In this document: positions 31,140 through 43,646 of the stretch, piece by piece
Layout of the letters: the number at the start of each line of letters is the position of its first letter
Numbering within the stretch: position 1 is the stretch's first letter
DNA from: an uncultured Porphyromonadaceae bacterium
GTDB lineage: Bacteria > Bacteroidota > Bacteroidia > Bacteroidales > UBA12481
Length of the DNA stretch: 64,000 nt
Direction of reading: 5' to 3'
Assembly: GCA_964465145.1 (NCBI GenBank)
Contig: CAYXJR010000001.1
Span: 23,663 to 87,662 of the forward strand
Notes under the pieces: generated by a model
Told to the model about the DNA's origin: nothing
Seen by the model: the letters and a program-made list of their open reading frames with translations, nothing else
Database searches by the model: none
Program-made: the position numbers and the translations under genes

Positions 31140-34100
31140 CTATCTCCACTTTCAGTTTCTCCCCAGCTTCTATTTTTAGTTCGCTAAAACCTAATCGTAT
31201 TTTACTACCATCAACAGAAGAAACTTTAACCGGACGGAGTTTTTCCTGATGAAATAATTTGATCTGATCTGATGAAAAACCATTCGGTATCCTAAGTACT
31301 ATTTCACTCAGATTAAGCTGACCATGATTTAGATCGATCTGGTATTTAAATCTATTTTGATCTTTCTTTTGCGAATAGCTCCCCCATCCTTCAGCGGTAA
31401 CGAAAGGAGCCCGGAAATCCTCAGGTGTAAGTCGCGGATCAAATTCAATCATCCCTTTCGGACCATGATAGTTAAATCCGCAAACAGCCTGGAAAACGCC
31501 ATAACTGGCCATGGCCCGTGCGTAATGATCTGAACATTCTATTTCATTATAGGGATTTCTTAGCTGTGCATTATAGCGATCATGAATTGCCCTGCTGACA
31601 GCCAATCCATTCTGAAGAATATCTGGATTATCAATCCCTTCATAAACCATATGGGAGGCGGCCTGCCATTCAAATCCGCTCATGCACTCATTGAAATACA
31701 TGAACTGCCACTGATCTTCCCATTTATCCCGTTTTCCTCCCTTTGGCCAGGTGCACATAAGTAATCCTCCATCCCCGGCCATAGCATACCATCTCCCTGC
31801 TTTGAAATGTCTTCTGAAAGGTCCTACATCAGGAACAAAGTTGTATCTCCATAATGATCTTAAGGCCGACAATTGCTTCTCACGGTCAAAAATTGAACCC
31901 AGGCCTACCCAGTGAGCCCAGGATTGGCCAAAAATTTGATCGATATAACAACCGGCACCTACACCGATCACATCTTTATGCTCAGGATCCTCCAGCTGGA
32001 TAAAAAACTCTCCATTGAATAGCTCATTCATGTTTCCGGCGCCCTTTTCTGCAATTGAGGAGCATTCTCCGGCAAATTTAAAATCCTCCATTTCAGTTGC
32101 CATTTTCTCCCCGGCCCGCAAAGCGGATATGTAAAGGGAAGAAATAAAGCTGATCTTGCCATACCAGGATGCATCCAGTGTATTAGGCTGCGACCCTTCC
32201 AATATGCCATCAAGATCTGCATCCTGATCGATCATATATAGCAGCGACTTTTTTATTGCCGTCCAGTTTCTTTTCAAAAAAGAATCATCGGCCGACATCA
32301 GGTGTTCCCTGTAAGCGCCAAGAATCCGTCCGCACTGTCCGTCGAATGCCGGGCCCATGGAGGTCTCAAGTAAAGCCCGATAGCCAATCTCTCCATTTTC
32401 TTTAAGAGCCATTCCAAAATCAACCCTTTCCCGTTGATCACGCTCAATTTCAGGGAATAAGCGGCCAACAGCCTGGGCATAATGCCACACATGGGTACAT
32501 GTTCCGGTACAGCAGCCAATACCCTCCCAGGCCCAAAATCTACCATTCTCATGACGGTAACAGGTGGTGGTAGCCAGGGTTGACGTATTGGCCATGGATC
32601 GATCCAGAAGCCAGTACGGTAAACTTGAATCATACCAGGTTTTCACCCATGTGCGAGTGGCACCAAGAAGACTATCCTGATTCGAGGCAATATATCCTGC
32701 AACTTCCAGGGCTGAATCAAAACGGGCTGCATAGGAATGACCCACTTTCACTCCTCCAAAATCACGGCCGTAAAAATTCGGGAAATGCCAGGTGAAGGCG
32801 AAATCAACGTTTTTGTCCTGGCCTGGTTCCAGATTGGTATTAATGGCTATTTGGCCAATAAGGATATCAGATAACAGATTACGGATGGCCTTTTTCTTCC
32901 CTGTTGATTTAATATCGGCAGATGCCTCAGTATTTTTACCTTCCAGGACAGATAGACAGAATGTTCCGAAATCCCGAAGCTCTGAAATGGGTTTGCTCTC
33001 GGGAGGATTATCGGAAAATACAAAATGATCCACACCGATATTACCCCAGCCCTCACTAAAATTATCCACTATCTCCAGCTGAGCATTCTGGCCTTCCCAT
33101 TGTCTAACTTTTATCCCTTCCAGCTTCATCGCATTGCTATTCTTCCCGGTAATTGTGGCCTTGATCTCTCCATCTATCAGGAGGTTGACACAGGTTTTTT
33201 CCTTATTAGCACCACCACCAACATAGAAATTGATATACTCCCGCTCAATTTTAAAAACCGGACTGGTCAGAGTACCTGTCTGCTGATCTTTCTCTCCTAC
33301 CTCACTGCCTGAGGCTGAAGCATGACTATTCACTACACGATTTCCTTCACCGCCTACATTTCCCTGGTAATCCGGTATATCGCTCTTTAAAATCGGCCCC
33401 TCCCCGAAGGATTTTCCAGTTGTTTTCCACTCACCATACGACTCAGATTCAAAATCCTCGAAAAGGATATCCTTCCTGGCCTTGCTTTTCTCAACCGGGG
33501 CAGGGAGGGCTTCGCACAGCAGGGAGGTCAGCATTTTATTTCCCACCACTCTGTTTTGCCGGCGGCCCGGCTGGTCTGCAGCAGAATCTATGCAGACAGG
33601 ATTTTGAGTATATCCCCGTATGCTGCATTCAACAATTTTATCAGATTTATTGATGACTTTGTAGCTCATCACCGTTGCAGGAAGGGATGATTCATCAGCA
33701 TTCAGGGGGATAAAGGGTGAAAAAGCTTCCAATTCCACCTCCACAGGGCAGTCAGGATCGGAGAATTTGATACGAGCCATCGGGTACCGGCCATCAAACT
33801 CAATATTTTTAAAGCCCTTTTGGTTAATCGGCCTGACTTTATCTCCGATTATCAATTCAAATCCCTGTTTAAAAGGTGATTGAATTTTTGCTGGTTCTAT
33901 AAAATTCGCCCCACTTCTGGTATTAACCAGACTGCCGCCAAGCTCAACTTCCCGGGGCTGAATCCCTTCCTGGTCACGGTTAAAGATATCCCAAAGCCAA
34001 AGCTGGCCATCTCCTGAAAGATAAACCGTGCCAGCAAATAGTCCGCCTACAGGCATCCCAATATGTTTCAGGGCTTCAGGATCAGAATAGGTTTCCTTTT

Positions 34101-34320
34101 TCCCTCTTTCGAACAGTGATTTCACCCATGCAGGATCCAGTTTTTTATCCGCAGGAATATATTTAAGATATTCGTTTTCATCGAAAGGCCCTGCAAAAAC
34201 AGGCATTCCCGGAACCATCATTAATGAGGCTCCTATAGCAGAGGTTTTCAGAAATTCCCGACGGTTGATATTGTTTTTGTCGCTATTACACGAGCAGCTT
34301 TTGTCTTTGCAGTTTTCCAT
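31126..34320 (-). CDS. GH116-family glycoside hydrolase with Tat signal and inserted lectin-like domain
   Basis: NRREFLK Tat motif, IGMPVGG..G, AFSPFIP, WAWEG..CC.GTCTHVWHYAQ, NTLD, YNEIECSDHYARAMAS. Confidence 0.85.
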   Translation of the reverse strand: MENCKDKSCSCNSDKNNINRREFLKTSAIGASLMMVPGMPVFAGPFDENEYLKYIPADKKLDPAWVKSLFERGKKETYSDPEALKHIGMPVGGLFAGTVYLSGDGQLWLWDIFNRDQEGIQPREVELGGSLVNTRSGANFIEPAKIQSPFKQGFELIIGDKVRPINQKGFKNIEFDGRYPMARIKFSDPDCPVEVELEAFSPFIPLNADESSLPATVMSYKVINKSDKIVECSIRGYTQNPVCIDSAADQPGRRQNRVVGNKMLTSLLCEALPAPVEKSKARKDILFEDFESESYGEWKTTGKSFGEGPILKSDIPDYQGNVGGEGNRVVNSHASASGSEVGEKDQQTGTLTSPVFKIEREYINFYVGGGANKEKTCVNLLIDGEIKATITGKNSNAMKLEGIKVRQWEGQNAQLEIVDNFSEGWGNIGVDHFVFSDNPPESKPISELRDFGTFCLSVLEGKNTEASADIKSTGKKKAIRNLLSDILIGQIAINTNLEPGQDKNVDFAFTWHFPNFYGRDFGGVKVGHSYAARFDSALEVAGYIASNQDSLLGATRTWVKTWYDSSLPYWLLDRSMANTSTLATTTCYRHENGRFWAWEGIGCCTGTCTHVWHYAQAVGRLFPEIERDQRERVDFGMALKENGEIGYRALLETSMGPAFDGQCGRILGAYREHLMSADDSFLKRNWTAIKKSLLYMIDQDADLDGILEGSQPNTLDASWYGKISFISSLYISALRAGEKMATEMEDFKFAGECSSIAEKGAGNMNELFNGEFFIQLEDPEHKDVIGVGAGCYIDQIFGQSWAHWVGLGSIFDREKQLSALRSLWRYNFVPDVGPFRRHFKAGRWYAMAGDGGLLMCTWPKGGKRDKWEDQWQFMYFNECMSGFEWQAASHMVYEGIDNPDILQNGLAVSRAIHDRYNAQLRNPYNEIECSDHYARAMASYGVFQAVCGFNYHGPKGMIEFDPRLTPEDFRAPFVTAEGWGSYSQKKDQNRFKYQIDLNHGQLNLSEIVLRIPNGFSSDQIKLFHQEKLRPVKVSSVDGSKIRLGFSELKIEAGEKLKVEIVSEL

Positions 34321-34400
34321 GGCGATCAGGGCTGGTTTGAGATATCTAAAATACTTATTTATTTACTTTAACGAGCCAATCCCCCTAGCCCCCTTTCCCT

Positions 34401-34438
34401 CTTCACGCAATCTTCACAAAAATATATCATTCCTTCAC
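34401..34438. promoter_or_regulatory. Possible response-regulator binding direct repeats
   Basis: CTTCAC at 34401, 34412 and 34433 (11- and 21-bp spacing), next to two-component remnants. Confidence 0.35.
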
Positions 34439-34489
34439 ATTAGAGTGCTTGCGTATTACGATATTTGGATCAGTCTAAACTACTGAGTC

Positions 34490-35022
34490 GTGATTATCGA
34501 ACCAAAAATAGAAATGGAAACGAGCCTGCTAAGGAGTATGCTCATCAACGGATCTTTACACACGCAGGTCGGTAATGAGCTGGCCATTGTACCAGACTAT
34601 CTTGATTTGGAGAGAATCAGGATGGACGGGAAATTTTCCTATTATATCTCAGTTCCTAAATCCTTGAGGACCTTGTGCCTGTATTCCAAAGGCGCATCGC
34701 CGACGATGCTTTTGAACTTCAGCTGGAGATTGAAAAGCCCATACCGCAGATGATGCTAGACAAGGATGCTATGCTTCAGGTGTTTTTTAATCTGTTGGAT
34801 AATGCGTATAAATATTCGGGGCGGTCCAAAAGAATTAATGTCAAGATTTACCTCCCACCAGTCACCAGTCACTTGTCACTATTGCAATTCGTGATTATGG
34901 TATTGGAATTAGTGAGAAAGACAGGACGAGAATTTTTGAGCGCTTTTTCAGGGGCGACAGGCTCAGGACGGCGGGGATCAATAATTACAGTGATTTTACC
35001 GGAAAAAACCAATATATCATGA
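34490..35022 (+). pseudogene. Mosaic of histidine kinase fragments (LytS-type segment plus HATPase segment)
   Basis: ELAIVPDYLDLERIRMDGKFSYYISV (LytS-like), then DKDAMLQVFFNLLDNAYKYS and a frameshifted DYGIGI..ERFF. Confidence 0.65.
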
Positions 35023-35330
35023 CCAGAATTCTGATAATCGAAGACGACAAGGCCATCAGGATGGGTCTTGAAGATGATCTTAAGGCAGATGGATATGAGG
35101 TGGAATTTGCTTTTGACGGGCTGGAAGGCCTGAAAAAAGCACAAGAAGCGGGCTACGGCCTGATCCTGCTCGACCTGATGCTGCCGGGAATGGATGGGCT
35201 GGATGTGTGTAAGGAAATCAGGAGAAAAAATATTCCTACTCCAATCATTATGTTAACCGCTAAAAGTCAGGATTTTGATAAAGTTATAGGATTAGACTAT
35301 CCGGAATTAGCGATGATTCTTCCATATTGA
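35019..35330 (+). pseudogene. Truncated OmpR-type response regulator (receiver only)
   Basis: RILIIEDD..LLDLMLPGMDG..MLTAK..DKVIGL, then abruptly joined to inverted ORF6N sequence at about 35297. Confidence 0.8.
35284..35325 (-). pseudogene. 5' stub of a second ORF6N-family gene
   Basis: TCAATAATCAAT-ATG MEESSLIPD matches TCGATAATCAAT-ATG MGKSSLIPE at 41038 and is preceded by the same upstream motif. Confidence 0.7.
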
Positions 35331-35344
35331 TTATTGATCTTTCT

Positions 35345-35378
35345 TATATAGACGCAGAAAAGGGCTGGAAATGGAAAA
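35345..35378 (-). promoter_or_regulatory. Shared bipartite motif copy 1 (putative alternative-sigma promoter)
   Basis: Plus strand TATATAGACGC-N13-AAATGGAAAA, 19 nt upstream of the ORF6N stub ATG. Confidence 0.65.
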
Positions 35379-35390
35379 CCGCGCATGTAA

Positions 35391-35416
35391 TAGACCTGTC
35401 AGGTTTTCAAAGACCT
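35391..35416. repeat. REP-like element (degenerate right arm)
   Basis: TAGACCTGTCAGGTTTTCAAAGACCT; same family as 36225 and 38442. Confidence 0.65.
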
Positions 35417-35437
35417 CCGGTTTTATACAAAAAAAGG

Positions 35438-35454
35438 TATCACAAATTGTGATA
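35438..35454. promoter_or_regulatory. ORF6N-type palindrome, intergenic copy
   Basis: TATCACAA-A-TTGTGATA, identical to 40819-40835 inside the ORF6N gene. Confidence 0.6.
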
Positions 35455-35486
35455 GCAAGGAATTTATTGAATCAGTGATTCAATTT

Positions 35487-35858
35487 CTACTTCAACTCAT
35501 ATGCTCCAACCAAAGACCGGGCTGGAATACCCAGTCGCTCCGATAAATTCCTTATCATTTCCAAGGTTAACCGTCTTTTGCGGCTAAGCACTTCAGAAGC
35601 ACGGTTTTTTCCACCAAAAGCATCGGCTAAATCCACTTGTTTGAGGCTCATCTCCTCCATCCTGATCTTTATCATTTCAATTGGATCCGGGGGGTCAATT
35701 GGATAATGGCGATTCTCATAATCCTCAACCAGCAGGGCTAATACTTCAGCCTCATCACCTTCTTCTGTTCCGACAGGAGCATCAAATAATTCATACAGGC
35801 GATCCAAGGCAATCTGGTACTCTGCTTCTGTTTTTAATATCTTAAATTTCTGTCCCAT
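35487..35858 (-). CDS. higA: HigA-family antitoxin (HTH)
   Basis: KTEAEYQIAL..E..VLALLVEDYE..YPI.PPDPIE.IK.RME..LKQ.DL..SEVL..KR.LTLEMIR.L. Confidence 0.9.
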   Translation of the reverse strand: MGQKFKILKTEAEYQIALDRLYELFDAPVGTEEGDEAEVLALLVEDYENRHYPIDPPDPIEMIKIRMEEMSLKQVDLADAFGGKNRASEVLSRKRRLTLEMIRNLSERLGIPARSLVGAYELK

Positions 35859-35863
35859 AAGAT

Positions 35864-36160
35864 TCAAATAGTATTAGCATCAATCTTGTCATACTCTTCA
35901 TGGGTACCAATAAACCGGATAAATACCCATTGCCTTTCATAATTAATCTTCACAACAAGCCGAAAAGAATTTCCTTTTATGTTAAATACCGCTCTTCCAT
36001 TTTTCAATAAGCTTACCCCAGCAAATGTCTGCCTAACATCATTTGGTTTTGTCCAACCTGAAGCCATTGTATATGAGTACCAGGTTTTCAAATATTGCTC
36101 TGCTTCAGGGCATTCTCTCCAAAATTTCAATAATGTCCCTTTAGTAAAAATCCCTTTCAC
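35864..36160 (-). CDS. higB: HigB-family toxin (RelE-like mRNase)
   Basis: TL.KFW..P.AE..L.TWY..W..P.DV, RAVFNIKGN.FRLVVKINY..VFIRFIGTHEEYDKIDA. Probable GTG start at 36160. Confidence 0.9.
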   Translation of the reverse strand: MKGIFTKGTLLKFWRECPEAEQYLKTWYSYTMASGWTKPNDVRQTFAGVSLLKNGRAVFNIKGNSFRLVVKINYERQWVFIRFIGTHEEYDKIDANTI

Positions 36161-36172
36161 GATTTGGCATTT

Positions 36173-36204
36173 CAAAATTAATAAATAATTCCCATTTTGG
36201 GAAT
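36173..36204 (-). promoter_or_regulatory. higBA promoter (-7 TAATTTTG) and palindromic operator
   Basis: TAnnTTTG at 36173-36180 (minus strand); ATTCCCA-TTT-TGGGAAT at 36188-36204. Confidence 0.6.
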
Positions 36205-36224
36205 ATTTCTGTTTTAATTACTAA

Positions 36225-36261
36225 TAGACCTGTCAGGTCTTTCAGAAACCTGACAGGTCTA
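36225..36261. repeat. REP-like hairpin overlapping the DUF1016 stop
   Basis: TAGACCTGTCAGG-TCTTTCAGAAA-CCTGACAGGTCTA; supplies the terminal codons LDLSGF*. Confidence 0.8.
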
Positions 36262-37267
36262 ACCCACCTAGCCCCCTCTCAATCTGCTCAACCGATGGTA
36301 GTGACTTTTCATAATACTCGGGCAATTCTGGGCCAGTGCTGTAGCTGGCGATACCAATGGGATTTTTTGTGTTTTTGAGGGAATATTCAACTGTCAACCG
36401 GCTTTTGTTTTTACAAATAATGATTCCAATGGCTTCTTTTTCATGTGGCTTACGATAGAAATCATTCAGAACATTTAGATAAAATTCCATTTTCCCTTTA
36501 TATTCAGGTTTGTAATTACCTGTTTTTAGTTCAATAGCAACCAAGCATTGCAGATCCCTGTGAAATAAAAGAAGATCAATATAGAATTCCTCACTTCCCA
36601 AAGTGATTCTAAATTGACTCCCCATATAACTATAATCCCCACCGAACTCCAACAAAAATTGCTGCATGTTCCGTATTAGACCTTCTTCAAGCTCTCTTTC
36701 ACTATGTTTCTCTGATAATTCAAGAAAATCAAAAGTGTAATGATCTTTTACTGCCAGAGTTTTCTGATGCTGAAACTTATCAGCAAGCAAATCATCATAA
36801 TTAGTTTGGTTTAACAAATACTTCTCATAAGTTTTATTGTCAATCTGATGTTCAAGAACCCTTGTTGTCCAACCAAATTTTTGTGTTGCAACAATATAGA
36901 ATTGTCTTTCTTGGGGTGTTTTGCATTTTGTGAAAATTCTGATATTGTGTGTCCAACCAATTTCTCCAATCAATGATTGGAGATTTATATGTTGCTCATA
37001 TTCAATATAAAACTGAACCATCAGCCAGATATTTGTTGTTGAAAAACCTCTTTGTTCAGGGAATTCTGTGGAGAGATCTTTGGTAATAGTTTCCACTACA
37101 GATTTTCCCCACCCCAACTCCTTCTGCTTCTCGGATATCATCTTCCCAATATCCCAATAAAGCCCTACTAATTCTTTATTTACAGCTTTCAGGGCAGCAT
37201 ACTGTGCATTGCGGATCCGTTCCTTGACTGATCCTATAAAGTCTTTGTATTCTTTTGGTGCATCCAT
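36242..37267 (-). CDS. yhcG: DUF1016/YhcG-family PD-(D/E)XK nuclease-domain protein (copy 1, intact)
   Basis: VNKELVGLYWDIG..WGKSVV..GFS..N, GWTH, KDHYTFDFL, YIDLLLFH..LVAIELK, GKMEFYL, IGIIICK. Confidence 0.92.
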   Translation of the reverse strand: MDAPKEYKDFIGSVKERIRNAQYAALKAVNKELVGLYWDIGKMISEKQKELGWGKSVVETITKDLSTEFPEQRGFSTTNIWLMVQFYIEYEQHINLQSLIGEIGWTHNIRIFTKCKTPQERQFYIVATQKFGWTTRVLEHQIDNKTYEKYLLNQTNYDDLLADKFQHQKTLAVKDHYTFDFLELSEKHSERELEEGLIRNMQQFLLEFGGDYSYMGSQFRITLGSEEFYIDLLLFHRDLQCLVAIELKTGNYKPEYKGKMEFYLNVLNDFYRKPHEKEAIGIIICKNKSRLTVEYSLKNTKNPIGIASYSTGPELPEYYEKSLPSVEQIERGLGGLDLSGF

Positions 37268-37283
37268 AAATAGTAGTTTTATT

Positions 37284-37317
37284 TATATAGATGCGAATGA
37301 GGGCCGGAAATGGAAAA
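37284..37317 (-). promoter_or_regulatory. Shared bipartite motif copy 2
   Basis: TATATAGATGC-N13-AAATGGAAAA, 16 nt upstream of ATG 37267. Confidence 0.7.
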
Positions 37318-37330
37318 TAGCGCAACTTAA

Positions 37331-37351
37331 CATATCACATTTTGTGATATG
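37331..37351. promoter_or_regulatory. ORF6N-type palindrome variant
   Basis: CATATCACA-TTT-TGTGATATG, overlapping the stop of DUF1016 copy 2 and just upstream of motif copy 2. Confidence 0.55.
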
Positions 37352-38377
37352 CACCCAATTCTCCAGCCAGTTCCTTTTCTATTTCTTCAATTGTCGGAAG
37401 ATTTGGTTTCAGCTTGTCGGGTATTACTGTACTCAGTTCATACTCAGCAATACCAATCGGTTGTGACATTCCCCTTAGAGCATACTCGGCAATTATCTTA
37501 GACTTAGATTTACAAATTAACAATCCGATGGTTGGATTATCATTTTCTGTTCTGATGGAATCATCAACAGCAGAAAGATAAAGGTTCATCTTGCCTGCAA
37601 ATTCCGCCTTGAATTCCTTGGTTTTGAGTTCTATGACTACATAGCATTTTAATCTGATGTGGTAGAAAAGCAAATCAAGATAAAAATCCTTATTGTCAAT
37701 CTTTAGAATTACTTGCCGACCTACAAATGAGAATCCAGAACCCAATTCCAGAAGAAATGAAGTAATGTGGTTAATCAGTTGCTTCTCCAGGTCCTTTTCA
37801 AGAGCCTTATCCTGAAGACTGAGAAAATCAAATATATACGGGTCTTTAAAAGATTCATTAGCCAATTCCGAATGAGGCATAGACATTGTATGCTCAAAAT
37901 TTGTAACCGCTTTACCCTGTCTTAAAAAAAGGCCAGACTCAAATTGATGGATCAGGATTGAGCGAGACCAATTGTTTTCAATGGTTCTTTGACAATAAAA
38001 AAAGCCTCTCTAGCTGATTTAGACTTAGTTACAATAATAACGTTATGGCCCCATGGAATTTGTCCAACAAGTTGTTGGATTTTTTCGGGTTCGATGCGAG
38101 AGGATGAGAAAAACTCGTACCATTTCTTCATAGAGAAGAGGTTTGATCGGGAAAATCCTTTTTGATCCGGGAATTCCACCTTGAGGTCATTGGAGAGTTT
38201 CTCAACTACAGCTGAACCCCAATTTGATTTCGATATTTTAATAGAAATCGATTCCCCAATATCCCAATACAAAAACAGCAGCTCCCTGTTAATATTAGTA
38301 AAAGCTCTAATATGCGCTGTCCTAATTCTCCGTTTTAGTTCAACCAACCATTCTTTGTATTCTTTTGGTGCATCCAT
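37335..38377 (-). pseudogene. yhcG: DUF1016/YhcG copy 2, -1 frameshift in a T7 run
   Basis: One extra T at 37997-38003 gives EAFFYCQRTIENNWSRSILIHQFESGL..NF..ELA..KDPYIFDFL, continuous with the 37335-37886 ORF. Confidence 0.85.
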
Positions 38378-38394
38378 AAATTGTAGGTTTTATT

Positions 38395-38428
38395 TATATA
38401 GATGCAGATCAGGAGCCAAAATGGAAAA
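38395..38428 (-). promoter_or_regulatory. Shared bipartite motif copy 3
   Basis: TATATAGATGC-N13-AAATGGAAAA, 17 nt upstream of ATG 38377. Confidence 0.7.
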
Positions 38429-38441
38429 TCGCGTAGGTGCC

Positions 38442-38475
38442 AGACCTGTCAGGTTTTCAAAGGCCTGACAGGTCT
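38442..38475. repeat. REP-like hairpin
   Basis: AGACCTGTCAGG-TTTTCAAAGG-CCTGACAGGTCT. Confidence 0.8.
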
Positions 38476-38594
38476 AGCCTTCCATTCAAGGTTGTCGCAA
38501 ATTGCTACCAGTCTAGGCGAGGCAAGTTAACTGGAAATAAAAGAAAGCTTAATCAAAGATATACGTGTGATGACAAATGAATTGCGGGTCGGCC

Positions 38595-38798
38595 AAAACA
38601 GAACAGCGGGCCGGCGGGGGCTTTTGAGCGAAGCGAAATCCCGAGAGCGCAGCGAATCGGGAGTGGGTGGAAGCTTTGTTCTGTTTTTGATTTTTGGGCC
38701 ACCTTTTTCATCAAGGAAAAAGGTGGAAAGAATAAAAGGATTGGACTAAAGTCCAGGCCATTAGGCTAGACTGTAGGGCCAGTAGATAAATCTAGTGG
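38595..38798. repeat. Multi-hairpin non-coding element / REP cluster
   Basis: AAAACAGAACA (38595) pairs with TGTTCTGTTTT (38677), with inner TCCCGA/TCGGGA. CCACCTTTTTC-ATCAAG-GAAAAAGGTGG at 38699-38726, TGGAC-TAAA-GTCCA, and CCAGTAGAT-AA-ATCTAGTGG. Confidence 0.55.
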
Positions 38799-38801
38799 TA
38801 A

Positions 38802-39316
38802 CTATAATATGCTCCTTAGCTCTCTTTCACTGTGCTTTTCAGATAAACCAAGAAAATCGAAGGTGTAATGATCCTTGATAGCCAGGGTATTCTGATGCTG
38901 AAACTTATCAGCAGGCAAATCATCATAATTGGTTTGGTTGAGCAAATACTTTTCGTAGGTTTTGTTTTCGATTTGGTGCTCCAATACTCTTGTTGTCCAA
39001 CCAAATTCTCTAGTGGCAGTTATATAAAATTTGCGCTGTGATTTGTTTTCACACTTTTTAAGAATCATAATATTATGACTCCATCCAATTTCTGGAATCA
39101 ATGATTCCAGAAATATAACTCCCTGATATTCATTATATAATCGAACCATTAGCCATAGATTATAAGCTGAAAATCCATGTTCTAATGGGAACTCATGTTT
39201 TAAATCCCTGGAAAGATTTTCAACAACAGATTTTCCCCATCCCAACTCCTTTTGCTTATCCGAAATCATTTTCCCAATATCCCAATAAAGTCTTTGTATT
39301 CTTTCGGTGCATCAAT
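38802..39316 (-). pseudogene. yhcG: DUF1016/YhcG copy 3: start codon lost, internal deletion, nuclease domain missing
   Basis: ATG>ATT at 39316 (IDAPKEYKD), a 79-bp deletion relative to copy 1, and homology ending after HSEREL. Confidence 0.85.
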
Positions 39317-39332
39317 AAATAGTAGTTTTAAT

Positions 39333-39366
39333 AATATAGATGCAGAAATGGCCTTGAAATGGAAAA
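39333..39366 (-). promoter_or_regulatory. Shared bipartite motif copy 4
   Basis: AATATAGATGC-N13-AAATGGAAAA, 16 nt upstream of the mutated start. Confidence 0.7.
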
Positions 39367-39381
39367 TGCTTTTTTGGAAAA

Positions 39382-39412
39382 GCCAGGGGTCGGACCGAAG
39401 CCGACCCCTGGC
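39382..39412. repeat. GC-rich hairpin (REP-like or terminator)
   Basis: GCCAGGGGTCGG-ACCGAAG-CCGACCCCTGGC. Confidence 0.65.
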
Positions 39413-39416
39413 AAGT

Positions 39417-40460
39417 TTAATCCCTATTCCCTAATTCCCCAATAATATCCATCATCACCAGTACATTCTCCAGCGGGGTTTCGGGGAGGATATAGTCATG
39501 GGAGGCGCCGGCGATGAATCCCCCGCCGGGCTTCATGATCCGGATGGTTTCAATCGTTTTCTGTCTGACTTGTTCAGGCGTGCCTTCGATAAGGACCTTT
39601 TGTGAGTCAATGCAGCCATTGAAAACAATCTCTTTGCCGTATTTCTTTTTGAGGGTAGCCAGGTCCATCCCCCTGCAAGAAGGCTGGATGGCATGAAGGC
39701 CGTCGATACCGCATTCTATCAGGGCGGGGATCAGCTCTGCAAAACCCCCGCAGCAGTGAAGCATTATCTTCGATTCATATGAATGGGCCAGGCATGCCAG
39801 CTTTTTGAATTTCGGGAATAAGTATTCCCTGAAAAGATCTTCCCCTATCAGCGCACCCTGGTTTGAACCGAGGTCATTCCCGAAAAACAATATATCGATA
39901 AGGTCGCCCGCTTCAGCGAAAATCCTCTCATTGGCAGCAAAATAGAAATCGAAAACCTTATCCATCAGAGTATGCACCCATTTTGGATCGGTGTACATCC
40001 GAGTCAAAAGATTCTCCATCCCTGCCAGGTCGATCGCATCATGCCAGAAAGGCGACCAGTCGCCACCCAGTATCGCGTACTCATTGGCATAGGGGGTAAT
40101 TCCTTTTCGTAGATTACTGACATCAACCTTAGCAGGGTCGGGCCAGGGATAGGCTGTGATCCCGTCCAAACCTGCTTCGGACAGAGGATGGTTAAGCGCC
40201 ATGCCAACTCCCACTCCAGCCCGTAAAATACCAAATGGAGATACTGATGAATCACCGAAAGTCGCAGTACCGATATGATCAATAAAAGGTGCCTTAATCC
40301 AGCGAAAATCATCACCCAGGCGCTGCCTGAAGCCCTCATCATCCAATCCCAGCTGCTTTTTACCTGCTTCCCAGAACTCAGGCGAAGTACCGCACCAGCG
40401 TGGCACCCGGTCAGGTTCGATAAAATCAAAGGAAATTAATACCCGTTCTTTGGAGGTCAT
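39417..40460 (-). CDS. Uroporphyrinogen-decarboxylase-family protein
   Basis: MTSKERV..EPDRVP, YPWPDP, GNDLGSN, MLHCCG, FNGCIDSQ, GGGFIAGASH..ETPLEN. Confidence 0.85.
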   Translation of the reverse strand: MTSKERVLISFDFIEPDRVPRWCGTSPEFWEAGKKQLGLDDEGFRQRLGDDFRWIKAPFIDHIGTATFGDSSVSPFGILRAGVGVGMALNHPLSEAGLDGITAYPWPDPAKVDVSNLRKGITPYANEYAILGGDWSPFWHDAIDLAGMENLLTRMYTDPKWVHTLMDKVFDFYFAANERIFAEAGDLIDILFFGNDLGSNQGALIGEDLFREYLFPKFKKLACLAHSYESKIMLHCCGGFAELIPALIECGIDGLHAIQPSCRGMDLATLKKKYGKEIVFNGCIDSQKVLIEGTPEQVRQKTIETIRIMKPGGGFIAGASHDYILPETPLENVLVMMDIIGELGNRD

Positions 40461-40516
40461 GATAACTGGTAAAATAGAATCACCCAAATTTATTCAGATT
40501 TCAGCCCTTTTCAAAT

Positions 40517-41038
40517 CTATTTTTCCTTGTTGATTTTATATCCTATCATTCTTCTTGGCTCATTTTTCTTTCCCAGTAGTCGCTTGATAGTTTCAAAAAC
40601 AAACCTGAACTTTCCATCATAATTTCTTTCCAATTCCTCAATTTTCCTTCTCAGCTGAGCATTGGATTCCATCATTTTCCTGAGCTTGACAAATGTCCTC
40701 ATAATCGCAATATTTACTTCAATTGCTTTAGGAGATCTGAGTACAGATGATAACATAGCAACTCCTTGTTCAGTGAACGCAAATGGAGGAGAAGGTGAAA
40801 ATTTAAGATCCTTTAGCTTATCACAAATTGTGATAAGCTCTTGCCACTCCTTTTTGCCTAACCGAATTAAAAAGTCATCGGGAAACCTTTCGATATTCCT
40901 GCGGACTTGCTGTTTTAATACTCTGGTTTCAAGACCATAAAGCTGCGCAAGATGAAAATCCAAAATAACTTTCCGGCCCCGGATTAGGAGTATGGCCCTG
41001 TCAATTTGTTCTTCTGGGATTAATGATGATTTTCCCAT
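40517..41038 (-). CDS. ORF6N-domain DNA-binding protein
   Basis: ILLIRGRKVILDFHLAQLYG.ETRVLKQQVRRNIERFP.DF, PFAFTEQGVAMLSSVLRS..AIEVNIAIMRTFV, RRMIGY. Confidence 0.92.
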   Translation of the reverse strand: MGKSSLIPEEQIDRAILLIRGRKVILDFHLAQLYGLETRVLKQQVRRNIERFPDDFLIRLGKKEWQELITICDKLKDLKFSPSPPFAFTEQGVAMLSSVLRSPKAIEVNIAIMRTFVKLRKMMESNAQLRRKIEELERNYDGKFRFVFETIKRLLGKKNEPRRMIGYKINKEK

Positions 41039-41057
41039 ATTGATTATCGATATTTAT

Positions 41058-41091
41058 AATATAAATGCGGATCATCGGATAAAATGGAAAT
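41058..41091 (-). promoter_or_regulatory. Shared bipartite motif copy 5
   Basis: AATATAAATGC-N13-AAATGGAAAT, 19 nt upstream of ATG 41038. Confidence 0.65.
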
Positions 41092-41139
41092 ATTTCGAAA
41101 ATTTATTCGGAAATTTAACCGATACAAACTCAACCAGCC

Positions 41140-43646
41140 ATGAAACTTAAACTTTTCAACATCTCTATTATCTCTGTCATGATAATTATCTCACTGGGAC
41201 TATCCAGCTGCCAGGATCAGCAGGCGGCTGCAGGCGAAAGAAACCTGGCCCTGCTTGCCGTGGCAGACGGATCCATGAATTTTGGCGGCTATTTGGCCGG
41301 CCTGAATGACCGCCTCACTCCAACCGATTCCCTACCATGGAGCTCATCAGCGGACAATTTAATACAACCAGTTTTGATGAGGTTTCAACAAACCAGCTGC
41401 GTGTAGTCGTTGACTCGGCCAGGATGTTTGCGGCCTCTGTTATGGAATGGAAAGTGATACAGGCACCGGGATCAGCCAATGTACCGCCGGTAGTCACGGC
41501 GGGTATTGACAGGGATGTGATGGTGGGTGGTAATACTTACCTGTTAGGATCAGTAAAGAGCATGACAACACCTGTCAGTCCAAATTGGATCAAAAAATCA
41601 GGCCCGGGAAAAGTGATGTTCGAAAATGCCAACTCCCTGGAAGCAAAAGCCAGCTTCTCTGAACCGGGGGAATATGTCCTGGCATTAACTGCAAAAGAGG
41701 GCCGGTTAAAATCGTCCTCCACACTGAAAGTATGGGTTCACGATCCGCCACCCGCCAAACGGCTGGATGTAGTATATACAAAACACTACTCGATAGATAA
41801 CCCTCTCTGGAACGACAGGGCAAAAGCGATAATTACCGAATGGATCCCCTGGTGTATCAGCCAGATTGAACGCACCGATCTTACCGAGGGCCAGGGCGGG
41901 CTTGATAATTTTATCGAAGCAGCCAAGGCACTGCACGGTGAACCGCATGGACGGCAGCAGGGTTATGTTTTCTCCAATGCATGGGTGCACCAGACCATCG
42001 AATCGATGTGTATTGCACTGATGGTTGATCCACAAGGCGACCAGGAGATAATAGCTGCCCAGGAGAAAATGAAGGAAACCATTGAAAAGTGGATCCCGAT
42101 AATCCTGGCAGCCCAGGAGCCCGATGGATACCTCCAGACAGCCTACACCCTGCGCGACACCACCCGTTGGAAAGACAGATGGGAAGAGCGTAACCGTGGG
42201 TCACATGAGGGCTATGTAGCCGGCTATTTTATCGAATCTGCAATAAACCACTATACCCTTACCGAAGGTTCGGATACTCGTTTGTATGATGCGGCCAAGA
42301 AGCTTGCCGACTGCTGGGTTGACAATATCGGACCGGGAAAGAAGGCATGGTACGACGGCCACCAGGAGATGGAGCAGGCCCTGGTAAGGTTCGGCCGTTT
42401 TGTGAACGATATGGAAGGCAAGGGCCGGGGCGATAGTTATGTTGCTCTGGCAAAGTTCCTGCTGGATAACCGCGGCGGGGGTAGCAAATACGACCAGAGC
42501 CACCTGCCGGTACAAGAGCAGTACGAGGCTGTGGGACATGCAGTAAGGGCGGTTTACAACTATTCAGCTATGGCCGACGTGGCTGCAGAAACAGGGGATA
42601 CCGATTATCAGAGCGCAGTAATGTCGCTATGGAATAACATGGTGAACAAAAAATATTACCTTACCGGAGGTGTGGGCAGCGGAGAAACATCTGAGGGATT
42701 CGGGCCCAATTATTCACTTCGAAATAATGCTTATGCCGAGTCCTGTTCAAGCTGTGGATTGATATTCTTCCAGTACAAAATGAACCTGGCCTACCACGAT
42801 GCCAAATATGCCGATCTTTATGAGGAGACTATGTACAATGCGCTCCTGGGCTCACTGGACCTTGAGGGGGAACACTTTTACTATACCAATCCACTCAATT
42901 CAAGCCGCCCGCGGGATGCCTGGCATGTCTGCCCCTGCTGTGTGGGTAATATCCCCAGGACCTTGCTTATGATCCCCACCTGGACCTACGTAAAGGGGGA
43001 TGAGGGGGTATATGTCAACCTTTTCATAGGAAGTACCATTCAGGTGGAAGGAATTGCCGGAACAAAGGTTGAGATGGTTCAGCAGACAGATTATCCATGG
43101 AAAGGGGATGTTTCGATTACTGTAAATCCAGAAGAGGAGAAAGCTTTTACAATATTTGTGCGTGTTCCCAACCGCCATACCAGCTTGCTGTACACCGCAG
43201 TTCCTGAAGTCAGCGGGCTCAAATCCCTGTCGGTTAATGGTGATGAGGTTGAAATAAACATCGAGAAGGGCTACGTGTCTATTCACCGGACCTGGAAGAA
43301 AGGCGACCAGATCAAGCTGGAAATACCGATGGAAATTCAGCGAATAACGGCCAGTAATCTTATTGAAGCCGACAGGGGAAAGGTTGCACTCCGTTATGGC
43401 CCGCTGATCTACAATGTGGAACTGGTCGACCAGGCAGATATAAGTCAGGGCATTAGTCCTGAACAACTTAGCCTGAAATGGCGGCCAGACCTTTTACACG
43501 GGGTGATGGTAATAAAGGGTAAATGGGCCGATGGATCAGATCTTACTGCCATCCCTTACTGGACAAGAAATAACAGGCTGGATCAGGCTGATCCTGAGGT
43601 GAGGAACGGATCGGTGGTGTGGATTGGTGGATCAGGAGATCGGTAG
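41140..43646 (+). pseudogene. GH127 beta-L-arabinofuranosidase-family lipoprotein; signal/N-terminus out of frame (break near 41335)
   Basis: Lipobox LSSC in the 41140 frame; catalytic region in the 41337 frame with HEGYVAG, GHQEME, AVGHAVRA, ESCSSCG, CPCC, PYW..NR. Confidence 0.75.

Follow-up and report, generated by a model that had tools for sequence, protein, structure and literature searches.

A palindrome within the codons of ORF6N genes as a predicted DNA site of the ORF6N protein itself

The locus and its palindromes

The window analysed here is a stretch of 64,000 nucleotides (nt) from the genome of an uncultured Porphyromonadaceae bacterium (contig CAYXJR010000001.1), and it carries an island of minus-strand genes in which a member of the ORF6N family, a family that is very common in bacteria and phages and hardly studied, contains a long perfect palindrome within its codons. 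Read along the minus strand, the island begins with the intact ORF6N gene and a MtaA/CmuA-like URO-D gene; DUF1016 genes come next, as a remnant, a split copy and an intact copy, and after them a HigB-like toxin gene with a helix-turn-helix (HTH) gene. At the island edge stand the initial eight codons of another ORF6N gene, joined to a response-regulator gene, a junction that looks like a rearrangement scar (coordinates in Table 1). The intact ORF6N protein matches the PDC-S05 models of PADLOC over residues 1-167 (E 1.2e-53), a name that marks a candidate defence gene.

The palindrome, AGCTTATCACAAATTGTGATAAGCT at 40815-40839, lies inside the minus-strand ORF6N open reading frame (ORF) 40517-41038 and is perfect over 25 nt, with 12-nt arms around a 1-nt centre. 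It is translated as ELITICDKL, which corresponds to the minority reading frame of the ORF6N family, and in a half-site view it reads TATCACA-N3-TGTGATA, with a 17-nt core at 40819-40835. An earlier note on this DNA, made from the letters alone, had described this palindrome together with an exact repeat of its core at 35438-35454, a TTT-centred copy at 37331 and a further copy at 38494. The sequence bears out the first three, and the fourth is present but decayed, with one mismatch between its arms. The note had also placed each copy upstream of a motif shared between the units; this is so on the coding (minus) strand, although the copy at 35438 fronts the truncated ORF6N gene and not a DUF1016 gene. 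The copy at 37331-37351, which has the half-sites and the spacing of the ORF6N-internal site, overlaps the stop codon of the split DUF1016 ORF 37335-37886 and is separated by about 10 nt from the promoter-like motif of the DUF1016 gene 36242-37267, upstream of which it lies. The site at 38494 aligns with that at 35438, so that the two occupy a homologous position in a shared upstream module, in which the palindrome is followed by a GACCTGTCAGG hairpin and then by the promoter-like motif.

When up to three mismatches were allowed, the 17-mer gave six strand-matches at three places against 0.46 expected, and none of 100 shuffles reached six; likewise, RTCRCAANTTGYGAY with at most one mismatch gave four matches against 0.14 expected, a number reached in none of 100 shuffles. 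Chance therefore does not explain the copies. A scan of the 4.62-Mb genome, which the earlier note had proposed, returned four places at up to two mismatches, three of them in the window and one inside another ORF6N gene (contig C38), where the copy occupies the homologous ORF6N codons in the other frame and is read as KSQIVIS. In the genome's third ORF6N gene, this position is taken by another perfect palindrome, AAGTCGAAA-A-TTTCGACTT.

Conservation of the palindrome in the ORF6N family

The comparison drew on 80 ORF6N loci from many phyla, which were, of 587 candidates, the 80 most similar to the query, and covered 85 genome-derived ORF6N genes and 53 distinct viral coding sequences, with 133 distinct proteins in the pooled set. 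Perfect arms of at least 6 nt were found at the same alignment position in 75 of the 85 genome-derived genes and arms of at least 9 nt in 55 of the 85, with a maximum of 20 nt, whereas elsewhere in the same coding sequences arms of at least 9 nt occurred in only one of the 85. Synonymous-codon shuffling yielded a mean arm of 3.4 nt, compared with 10.3 nt observed. On viral contigs, 35 of the 53 distinct coding sequences had arms of at least 6 nt and nine had no arm of 4 nt or more; in the pooled set, spanning many phyla and the viral contigs, arms of at least 6 nt were present in the genes of 108 of 133 distinct proteins. With regard to recombination at the palindrome, pairwise identities of gene quarters showed next to no correlation, even for quarters of one half, and so carried no information.

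The palindrome is kept while its translation changes. Among 116 genes with arms of at least 5 nt, 92 read it in frame 0 (SQ[IF]VT type) and the other 24, to which the window gene belongs, in frame 1 (VTNCD or ITICD), and the TCGAAA variant is present in both reading frames. Sequence variants stay symmetric through paired changes (TCGCA/TGCGA, TGCCA/TGGCA, TCGAA/TTCGA) that change the peptide they encode. Centres of 1 nt and of 3 nt are the only ones that occur, so that the half-site-N3-half-site arrangement, with the N3 between CA and TG, is constant.

A residue-to-base code in the predicted recognition helix

An AlphaFold2 (AF2) model of the window ORF6N protein (pLDDT 83.5) has helices at residues 27-34 and 38-47 and consists of an HTH followed by a long C-terminal helix. 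The nearest structural neighbours are Ski/Dachshund winged-helix domains, which are weak matches (E 0.18, TM ~0.5), and a sequence search of the protein against solved structures gave no match. Residues 37-48, ETRVLKQQVRRN, form the predicted recognition helix. In an unbiased scan for mutual information over alignment columns 14-59, column 47 was linked to base -3 of the half-site, columns 43 and 40 to bases -4 and -5, and column 39 to bases -7 and -8. Residues 39, 43 and 47 follow one another at intervals of one helical turn on the same face of the helix, and their order is colinear with that of the bases.

At position 47, arginine goes with C(-3) in 104 of 105 genes and asparagine with A(-3) in 10 of 10; at position 39, and in either frame, lysine goes with G(-7) in 43 of 44 and arginine with A(-7) in 39 of 41. 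At position 43, glutamine is found with CA at -5/-4, that is with A(-4), in 82 of 85 genes, glutamate with CG, that is with G(-4), in 16 of 17, arginine with GC in 7 of 7 and lysine with TC in 2 of 4; genes with R40 were of the CG type in 16 of 17 cases. As the code holds in both reading frames, it follows the DNA and not the encoded peptide.

The associations were also counted over phylogenetically independent pairs, on a tree built without the helix and palindrome columns (FastTree, about 110 columns, proteins about 50% identical). For Q43 and CA(-5/-4), nine pairs were obtained, of which 8.2 changed the same way and none the opposite way (median p 0.008); for Q43 and A(-4), 6.7 of eight pairs agreed with none opposed (p ~0.016), and for K39 and G(-7), 6.8 of eight agreed with none opposed (p ~0.016). 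In addition, a gene outside the sample (C44), which combines K39, E43 and N47, has the site GTCGAA, as the code predicts. The window protein, with R39, Q43 and R47, is predicted to read TATCACA, which is the half-site both of its internal palindrome and of the free copies at 35438 and 37333, and ORF6N thus most likely reads these sites as double-stranded DNA. The site at 38494 fits the K39/E43/R47 type, and no such protein is encoded in the genome.

These data bear on an alternative in which the palindromes are hairpins or cruciforms, formed in mRNA or in single-stranded or supercoiled DNA, that are recognised by their shape or affect transcription, translation or RNA decay. Long perfect arms (up to 20 nt in ORF6N and up to 26 nt in DUF1016 genes) with paired changes are what such structures would show, the variable 3-nt centre could form a triloop, and CCTTTTTTTG comes after the 35438 copy on the minus strand, so that this copy resembles a weak terminator of the higBA-like pair; moreover, DUF1016 genes show the same feature without a known sequence-specific DNA binder, and a stem is also a duplex, so that ORF6N could bind it in extruded form. 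However, the arms do not tolerate G-U pairs, since G-T combinations (GT and TG together) make up 15 of the 78 first mismatches at arm ends and are not enriched; the commonest first mismatch is A-C (17 of 78), at the wobble base facing a fixed threonine codon. The centre never departs from the N3 geometry, in either frame the bases change together with three helix residues of the protein itself, and the copies at 35438 and 37333 are upstream of promoter-like motifs and hence not in the transcripts of those genes. The marks of a structured RNA or intrinsic terminator were not found: G-T is not enriched, the centre is fixed, Rfam has no match at the sites in a scan of 34000-42000, and a T-run, on the minus strand, follows the 35438 copy alone. 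We therefore regard an RNA hairpin as unlikely, and hairpins or cruciforms in the wider sense as improbable. The preference of the earlier note for a double-stranded dyad over an RNA hairpin is in line with this.

Where the sites occur

In five other genomes (2.2-11.6 Mb), all 15 places that matched the 25-nt consensus with up to two mismatches fell within ORF6N genes or fragments of them or next to one, and a reversed-pattern control gave no match. Within 1.5 kb of ORF6N genes at the 82 non-window loci we found 23 free non-coding sites, 17 of them upstream, with 2 rows in the complement-control class against 35. Only 12 of the 82 loci have a free site within 150 nt of the ORF6N gene; the intragenic site is the constant one. 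Two loci, L053 and L076, have no internal palindrome but do have upstream copies. Exact or near-exact free copies of the resident internal site are limited to the window, L031, L059 and L086. The possibility that free sites are remnants of ORF6N coding sequence was rejected, as their flanks have stop codons in all frames and no ORF6N motifs.

A second alternative would see the palindromes as a mutational by-product: the SQIVT peptide seeds a quasi-palindrome, template switching perfects and lengthens it, and the free copies are what dead genes left behind. The abrupt ends and widely varying length of the arms, the broken ORF6N and DUF1016 genes in the island and the sporadic long palindromes in housekeeping genes of the same genome are consistent with such a process. 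Nevertheless, the palindrome persists through a frame change that removes the seeding peptide, mutation bias would not give a helix-to-base code, and the free upstream copies, flanked by stop codons and without similarity to ORF6N coding sequence, still keep the family consensus including the outer arms; the motif is also missing from the rest of the six genomes. Taken as a full explanation, a by-product appears very unlikely to us.

The palindromes could also be sites of another factor, either a global regulator of the CRP type or a recombinase or transposase for which they serve as crossover or target sites. TCACA/TGTGA resembles CRP half-sites, tyrosine integrases adjoin four of the 80 ORF6N genes (L014, L015, L019, L084), and an inner CA...TG resembles transposon ends. 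On the other side, the two arms are oriented opposite to those of CRP/FNR sites, in which the pentamers are alike but the spacing is N6 and not N3, no other protein family co-occurs with the sites, and most neighbours of ORF6N genes are unrelated housekeeping genes. The motif was found only in and beside ORF6N genes, with none of the ORF6N-type sites away from them. A CRP-like global regulator, which the earlier note had named as a way for its proposal to fail, was rejected because all four places in the genome are in or next to ORF6N genes or in the island and the motif is nowhere else in the six genomes. Of the alternatives that we considered, a separate factor is the least probable.

Some ORF6N genes are solitary inserts in housekeeping contexts (L037, L025 and L065), for example between two genes for NADH-quinone oxidoreductase subunits, which suggests that they are small self-contained mobile genes.

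Proposed mechanism

Conservation in two frames, fixed spacing, strict pairing, restriction to ORF6N loci and covariation between helix and bases together give strong comparative support to the proposal of the earlier note that ORF6N has an operator in its own coding sequence, and we consider that the ORF6N protein itself probably has the palindrome as its cognate site in double-stranded DNA. We propose that ORF6N, as a DNA binder of the winged-helix type, would act as a symmetric dimer that places helix 38-47 in the major groove of each half-site. The primary site would lie in the protein's own codons, about 200 nt after the start, and since it is written there it would travel with the gene wherever the gene lands, with extra copies arising beside such genes. 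In the window, the intact protein would dock at 40819-40835, 35438-35454 and 37333-37349. Such self-recognition might serve autoregulation, by a roadblock or by a loop between upstream and internal sites, or might mark the gene for self-immunity in a manner similar to BstA and aba, which are discussed below.

Several observations weigh against this reading. The sample was chosen by likeness to the query, and the tree behind the independent pairs is a FastTree tree of about 110 columns. The association of N47 with A(-3) amounts to a single evolutionary contrast, and L039 is an exception to the code, having Q43 and yet an internal TCGCA site. Arms of up to 20 nt exceed what one HTH dimer needs, and the same kind of coding palindrome in the unrelated DUF1016 genes means that a process independent of ORF6N, such as hairpin-templated symmetrisation, may add arm length. 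The intact window ORF6N gene has no site upstream or near its own promoter in the search with the window 17-mer. The free sites resemble the internal site of their own locus no more than the internal sites found elsewhere in the family (median percentile 0.34, n=21), and five of 24 do not fit the resident residue 43. The covariation of free sites with the resident gene that the earlier note had suggested as a check is thus in general absent in the detail of the internal site and present in the fit to residue 43, which holds for 19 of 24. The homodimer prediction for ORF6N scored 0.17, against a mark of 0.42, and gave no verdict.

DUF1016 genes and their own palindrome

The earlier note had further supposed that ORF6N co-regulates the DUF1016 units through the free copies. 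Locally, this is plausible for the copy at 37333, which has perfect predicted half-sites close to the DUF1016 motif; the site at 35438 belongs to the truncated ORF6N gene, and that at 38494 is of a type that no resident ORF6N is predicted to read. It is not general: a free ORF6N-type site was found at none of 37 other DUF1016 loci and an ORF6N neighbour at one of the 37, and none of 141 neighbours of ORF6N genes was a DUF1016 gene, the neighbours ranging from nuo genes to restriction systems and integrases. A local coupling of one DUF1016 gene to ORF6N is possible, and there is no general rule.

DUF1016 genes do contain a palindrome of their own, in the intact gene of the window as well as in its broken paralogues (Table 1). 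In 27 of 39 DUF1016 genes (with comparison loci L089-L125 plus L126, the Escherichia coli yhcG), whose proteins are often about 30% identical, the longest palindrome, with arms of 6-26 nt, is centred at residue 99 in the numbering of the window protein. In E. coli K-12 yhcG, a 33-nt perfect palindrome stands in tandem with two shorter ones. The DUF1016 palindromes have only the inner CA-N-TG in common, and a search of the flanks of 28 genes gave no free copy. The parallel with ORF6N, for which the ORF6N model does not account, may come from a strategy common to both families or from a common mutational process by which arms grow longer. In literature searches on ORF6N, DUF1016/YhcG, KilA-N and coding palindromes we found no description of the palindrome of either family; in the available parts of two related papers, DUF1016 is named only as a neighbour of inversion loci (PMC9881135), and an antisense RNA is reported at yhcG (PMC7967276).

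Relation to known systems

ORF6N is reported to be kin to KilA-N (Iyer et al. 2002), and we know of no defence or immunity phenotype, or defence test, for the family. The closest analogy that we see is BstA, an abortive-infection phage-defence protein with a KilA-N-like HTH domain, together with aba, a cognate and variant-specific DNA element that overlaps the bstA gene, acts as DNA and gives self-immunity, according to the part of the report available (Owen et al. 2021, PMC8585504). As a candidate single-gene defence family (PDC-S05) with several specificity types and an element within the gene, ORF6N would resemble this pair, with the type-specificity of its site suggested by co-variation. 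The architecture is unlike: aba, as described in the same part of that report, comprises 63 bp (29 bp upstream and the first 34 bp of coding sequence) with terminal direct CCCGCC repeats and without a palindrome, whereas ORF6N has a dyad, some 200 nt into the gene.

Sites within the gene of their own binder include parS in spo0J/parB and the ori-lambda iterons in gene O. These are likewise symmetric sites in the binder's own codons and can be compared with the tandem palindrome copies of the ORF6N genes at L077, L085 and L087; they differ in that they serve segregation or the initiation of replication, while ORF6N genes are solitary and stand in unrelated contexts. The N-terminal HTH followed by a long helix, and the fixed-spacing dyad, also recall MerR-type regulators and Ski/Dachshund domains at the level of the predicted model; compared with dimeric HTH regulators, the predicted operator of ORF6N is inside the coding sequence and not in a promoter, and the fold matches are weak (E 0.18 or worse).

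Palindromes that are translated exist in other settings. Rickettsia palindromic elements are inverted repeats translated as parts of proteins. Coding palindromes, that is perfect inverted repeats translated within proteins, are described in Nematomorpha mitochondria in the available part of PMC6649704. Both of these, as far as that part goes for Nematomorpha, involve many repeats in many genes of one genome, in contrast to ORF6N, with one fixed site across phyla that is tied to the protein's own reading helix.

If the palindrome is indeed the site of ORF6N, this would be the first testable function of the family and, after BstA and aba, a second case in which a defence-type protein marks the gene that encodes it; it would also provide a natural set of orthogonal protein-site pairs and predict which promoters are within reach of the resident window ORF6N. 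The translation of one site in two frames would then also imply that a segment of a protein can be dictated by a DNA signal. Here we speculate further that a binding site in the protein's own codons is a general device of mobile single-gene defence candidates, that the three-residue code splits ORF6N into immunity-like specificity groups, that the palindrome of the unrelated YhcG/DUF1016 nucleases (PDC-S02), E. coli yhcG among them, is analogous, and that ORF6N-type sites before DUF1016 promoters wire both systems into one circuit, a picture that we offer tentatively and consider rather doubtful as a whole.

Other features of the island

Table 1. Features of the island, with positions in the window.
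Feature	Position	Strand	Remarks
ORF6N gene, 173 aa	40517-41038	-	PF10543, 93.8 bits against a cut-off of 27.8, E 8e-27, residues 15-99
Truncated 5' end of second ORF6N gene (MEESSLIP...)	35300-35325	-	Repeat D5
Free-standing exact copy of the 17-nt core, TATCACAAATTGTGATA	35438-35454		About 115 nt upstream of the truncated ORF6N start (35325)
Free-standing copy CATATCACA-TTT-TGTGATATG	37331-37351 (core 37333-37349)		Half-sites and spacing as in the ORF6N-internal site
Decayed site GTCGCAA-A-TTGCTAC	38494-38508		TCGCA type, one arm mismatch, upstream of split DUF1016 gene
Intact DUF1016/YhcG gene	36242-37267	-	PADLOC PDC-S02
Broken DUF1016 paralogues	37335-37886 and 37952-38377 (split); 38802-39269 (N-terminal remnant)	-	
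Internal palindrome of intact DUF1016 gene, TCTCCAATCA-a-TGATTGGAGA	36963-36983		Those of the paralogues at 38063-38079 and 39088-39114
Free-standing palindrome ATTGAATCA-g-TGATTCAAT, DUF1016-like	35466-35484		12 nt from ORF6N-type site
HigB-like toxin gene; HTH gene	35864-36175; 35487-35867	-	Pfam HigB_toxin, E 2e-30
3'-truncated response-regulator gene	35019-35330	+	Response_reg profile positions 1-89 of 111; cut after about 100 residues
Promoter-like shared motif P5	35344-35378	-	Other copies at about 37283-37317, 38394-38428, 39332-39366 and 41057-41091
Hairpin repeat TAGACCTGTCAGGT...ACCTGACAGGTCTA	36225-36261; second copy 38439-38478; half copy 35391-35416		Repeats I21, I22, D9

Repeat D5, which relates the truncated second ORF6N gene to the intact one, aligns 35300-35377 with 41013-41090 at 73% identity. 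The promoter-like motif shared within the island has the form TTTTCCATTT-N14-GCATCTATAT and precedes five gene starts. A profile of its five copies gave 24 hits at E<1 over the whole genome (nhmmer), 19 of them elsewhere than in the island, and hits are found 15-25 nt before the starts of unrelated genes (recA-, radC-, hicA- and GIY-YIG-like genes and a Y1 transposase gene). Given these genome-wide hits, the motif is a general promoter-like element and not a mark of the island; it might serve as the promoter of a stress regulon or for one particular sigma factor. A sigma-70 promoter and terminator scan returned hit numbers at the level of shuffled sequence, and an Rfam scan of 34000-42000 (E up to 1) gave three chance-level hits, none of them at the palindrome sites.

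The HigB-like/HTH pair matches PADLOC PD-Lambda-2_A and PD-Lambda-2_B, the B match spanning only the first 121 of 402 profile positions. The palindromes at 35438 and 35466 both sit just past the HTH gene of this pair. Between the DUF1016 remnant and the split DUF1016 gene, the stretch 38510-38800 is GC-rich and has no ORF family match. The hairpin repeat of Table 1, TAGACCTGTCAGG...CCTGACAGGTCTA in its stem sequences, recurs in the genomes of relatives, with about ten copies in G009. The window's own genome has further long coding palindromes, which are sporadic and lie in unrelated housekeeping genes. The genome also contains REP-like palindromes, GTAGAGAC...GTCTCTAC, on contigs C6, C11, C14, C15, C23, C46, C51 and C68 as well as C77, C83, C103, C105 and C123-C125, and a gene for a Y1 (RAYT-like) transposase on C25.

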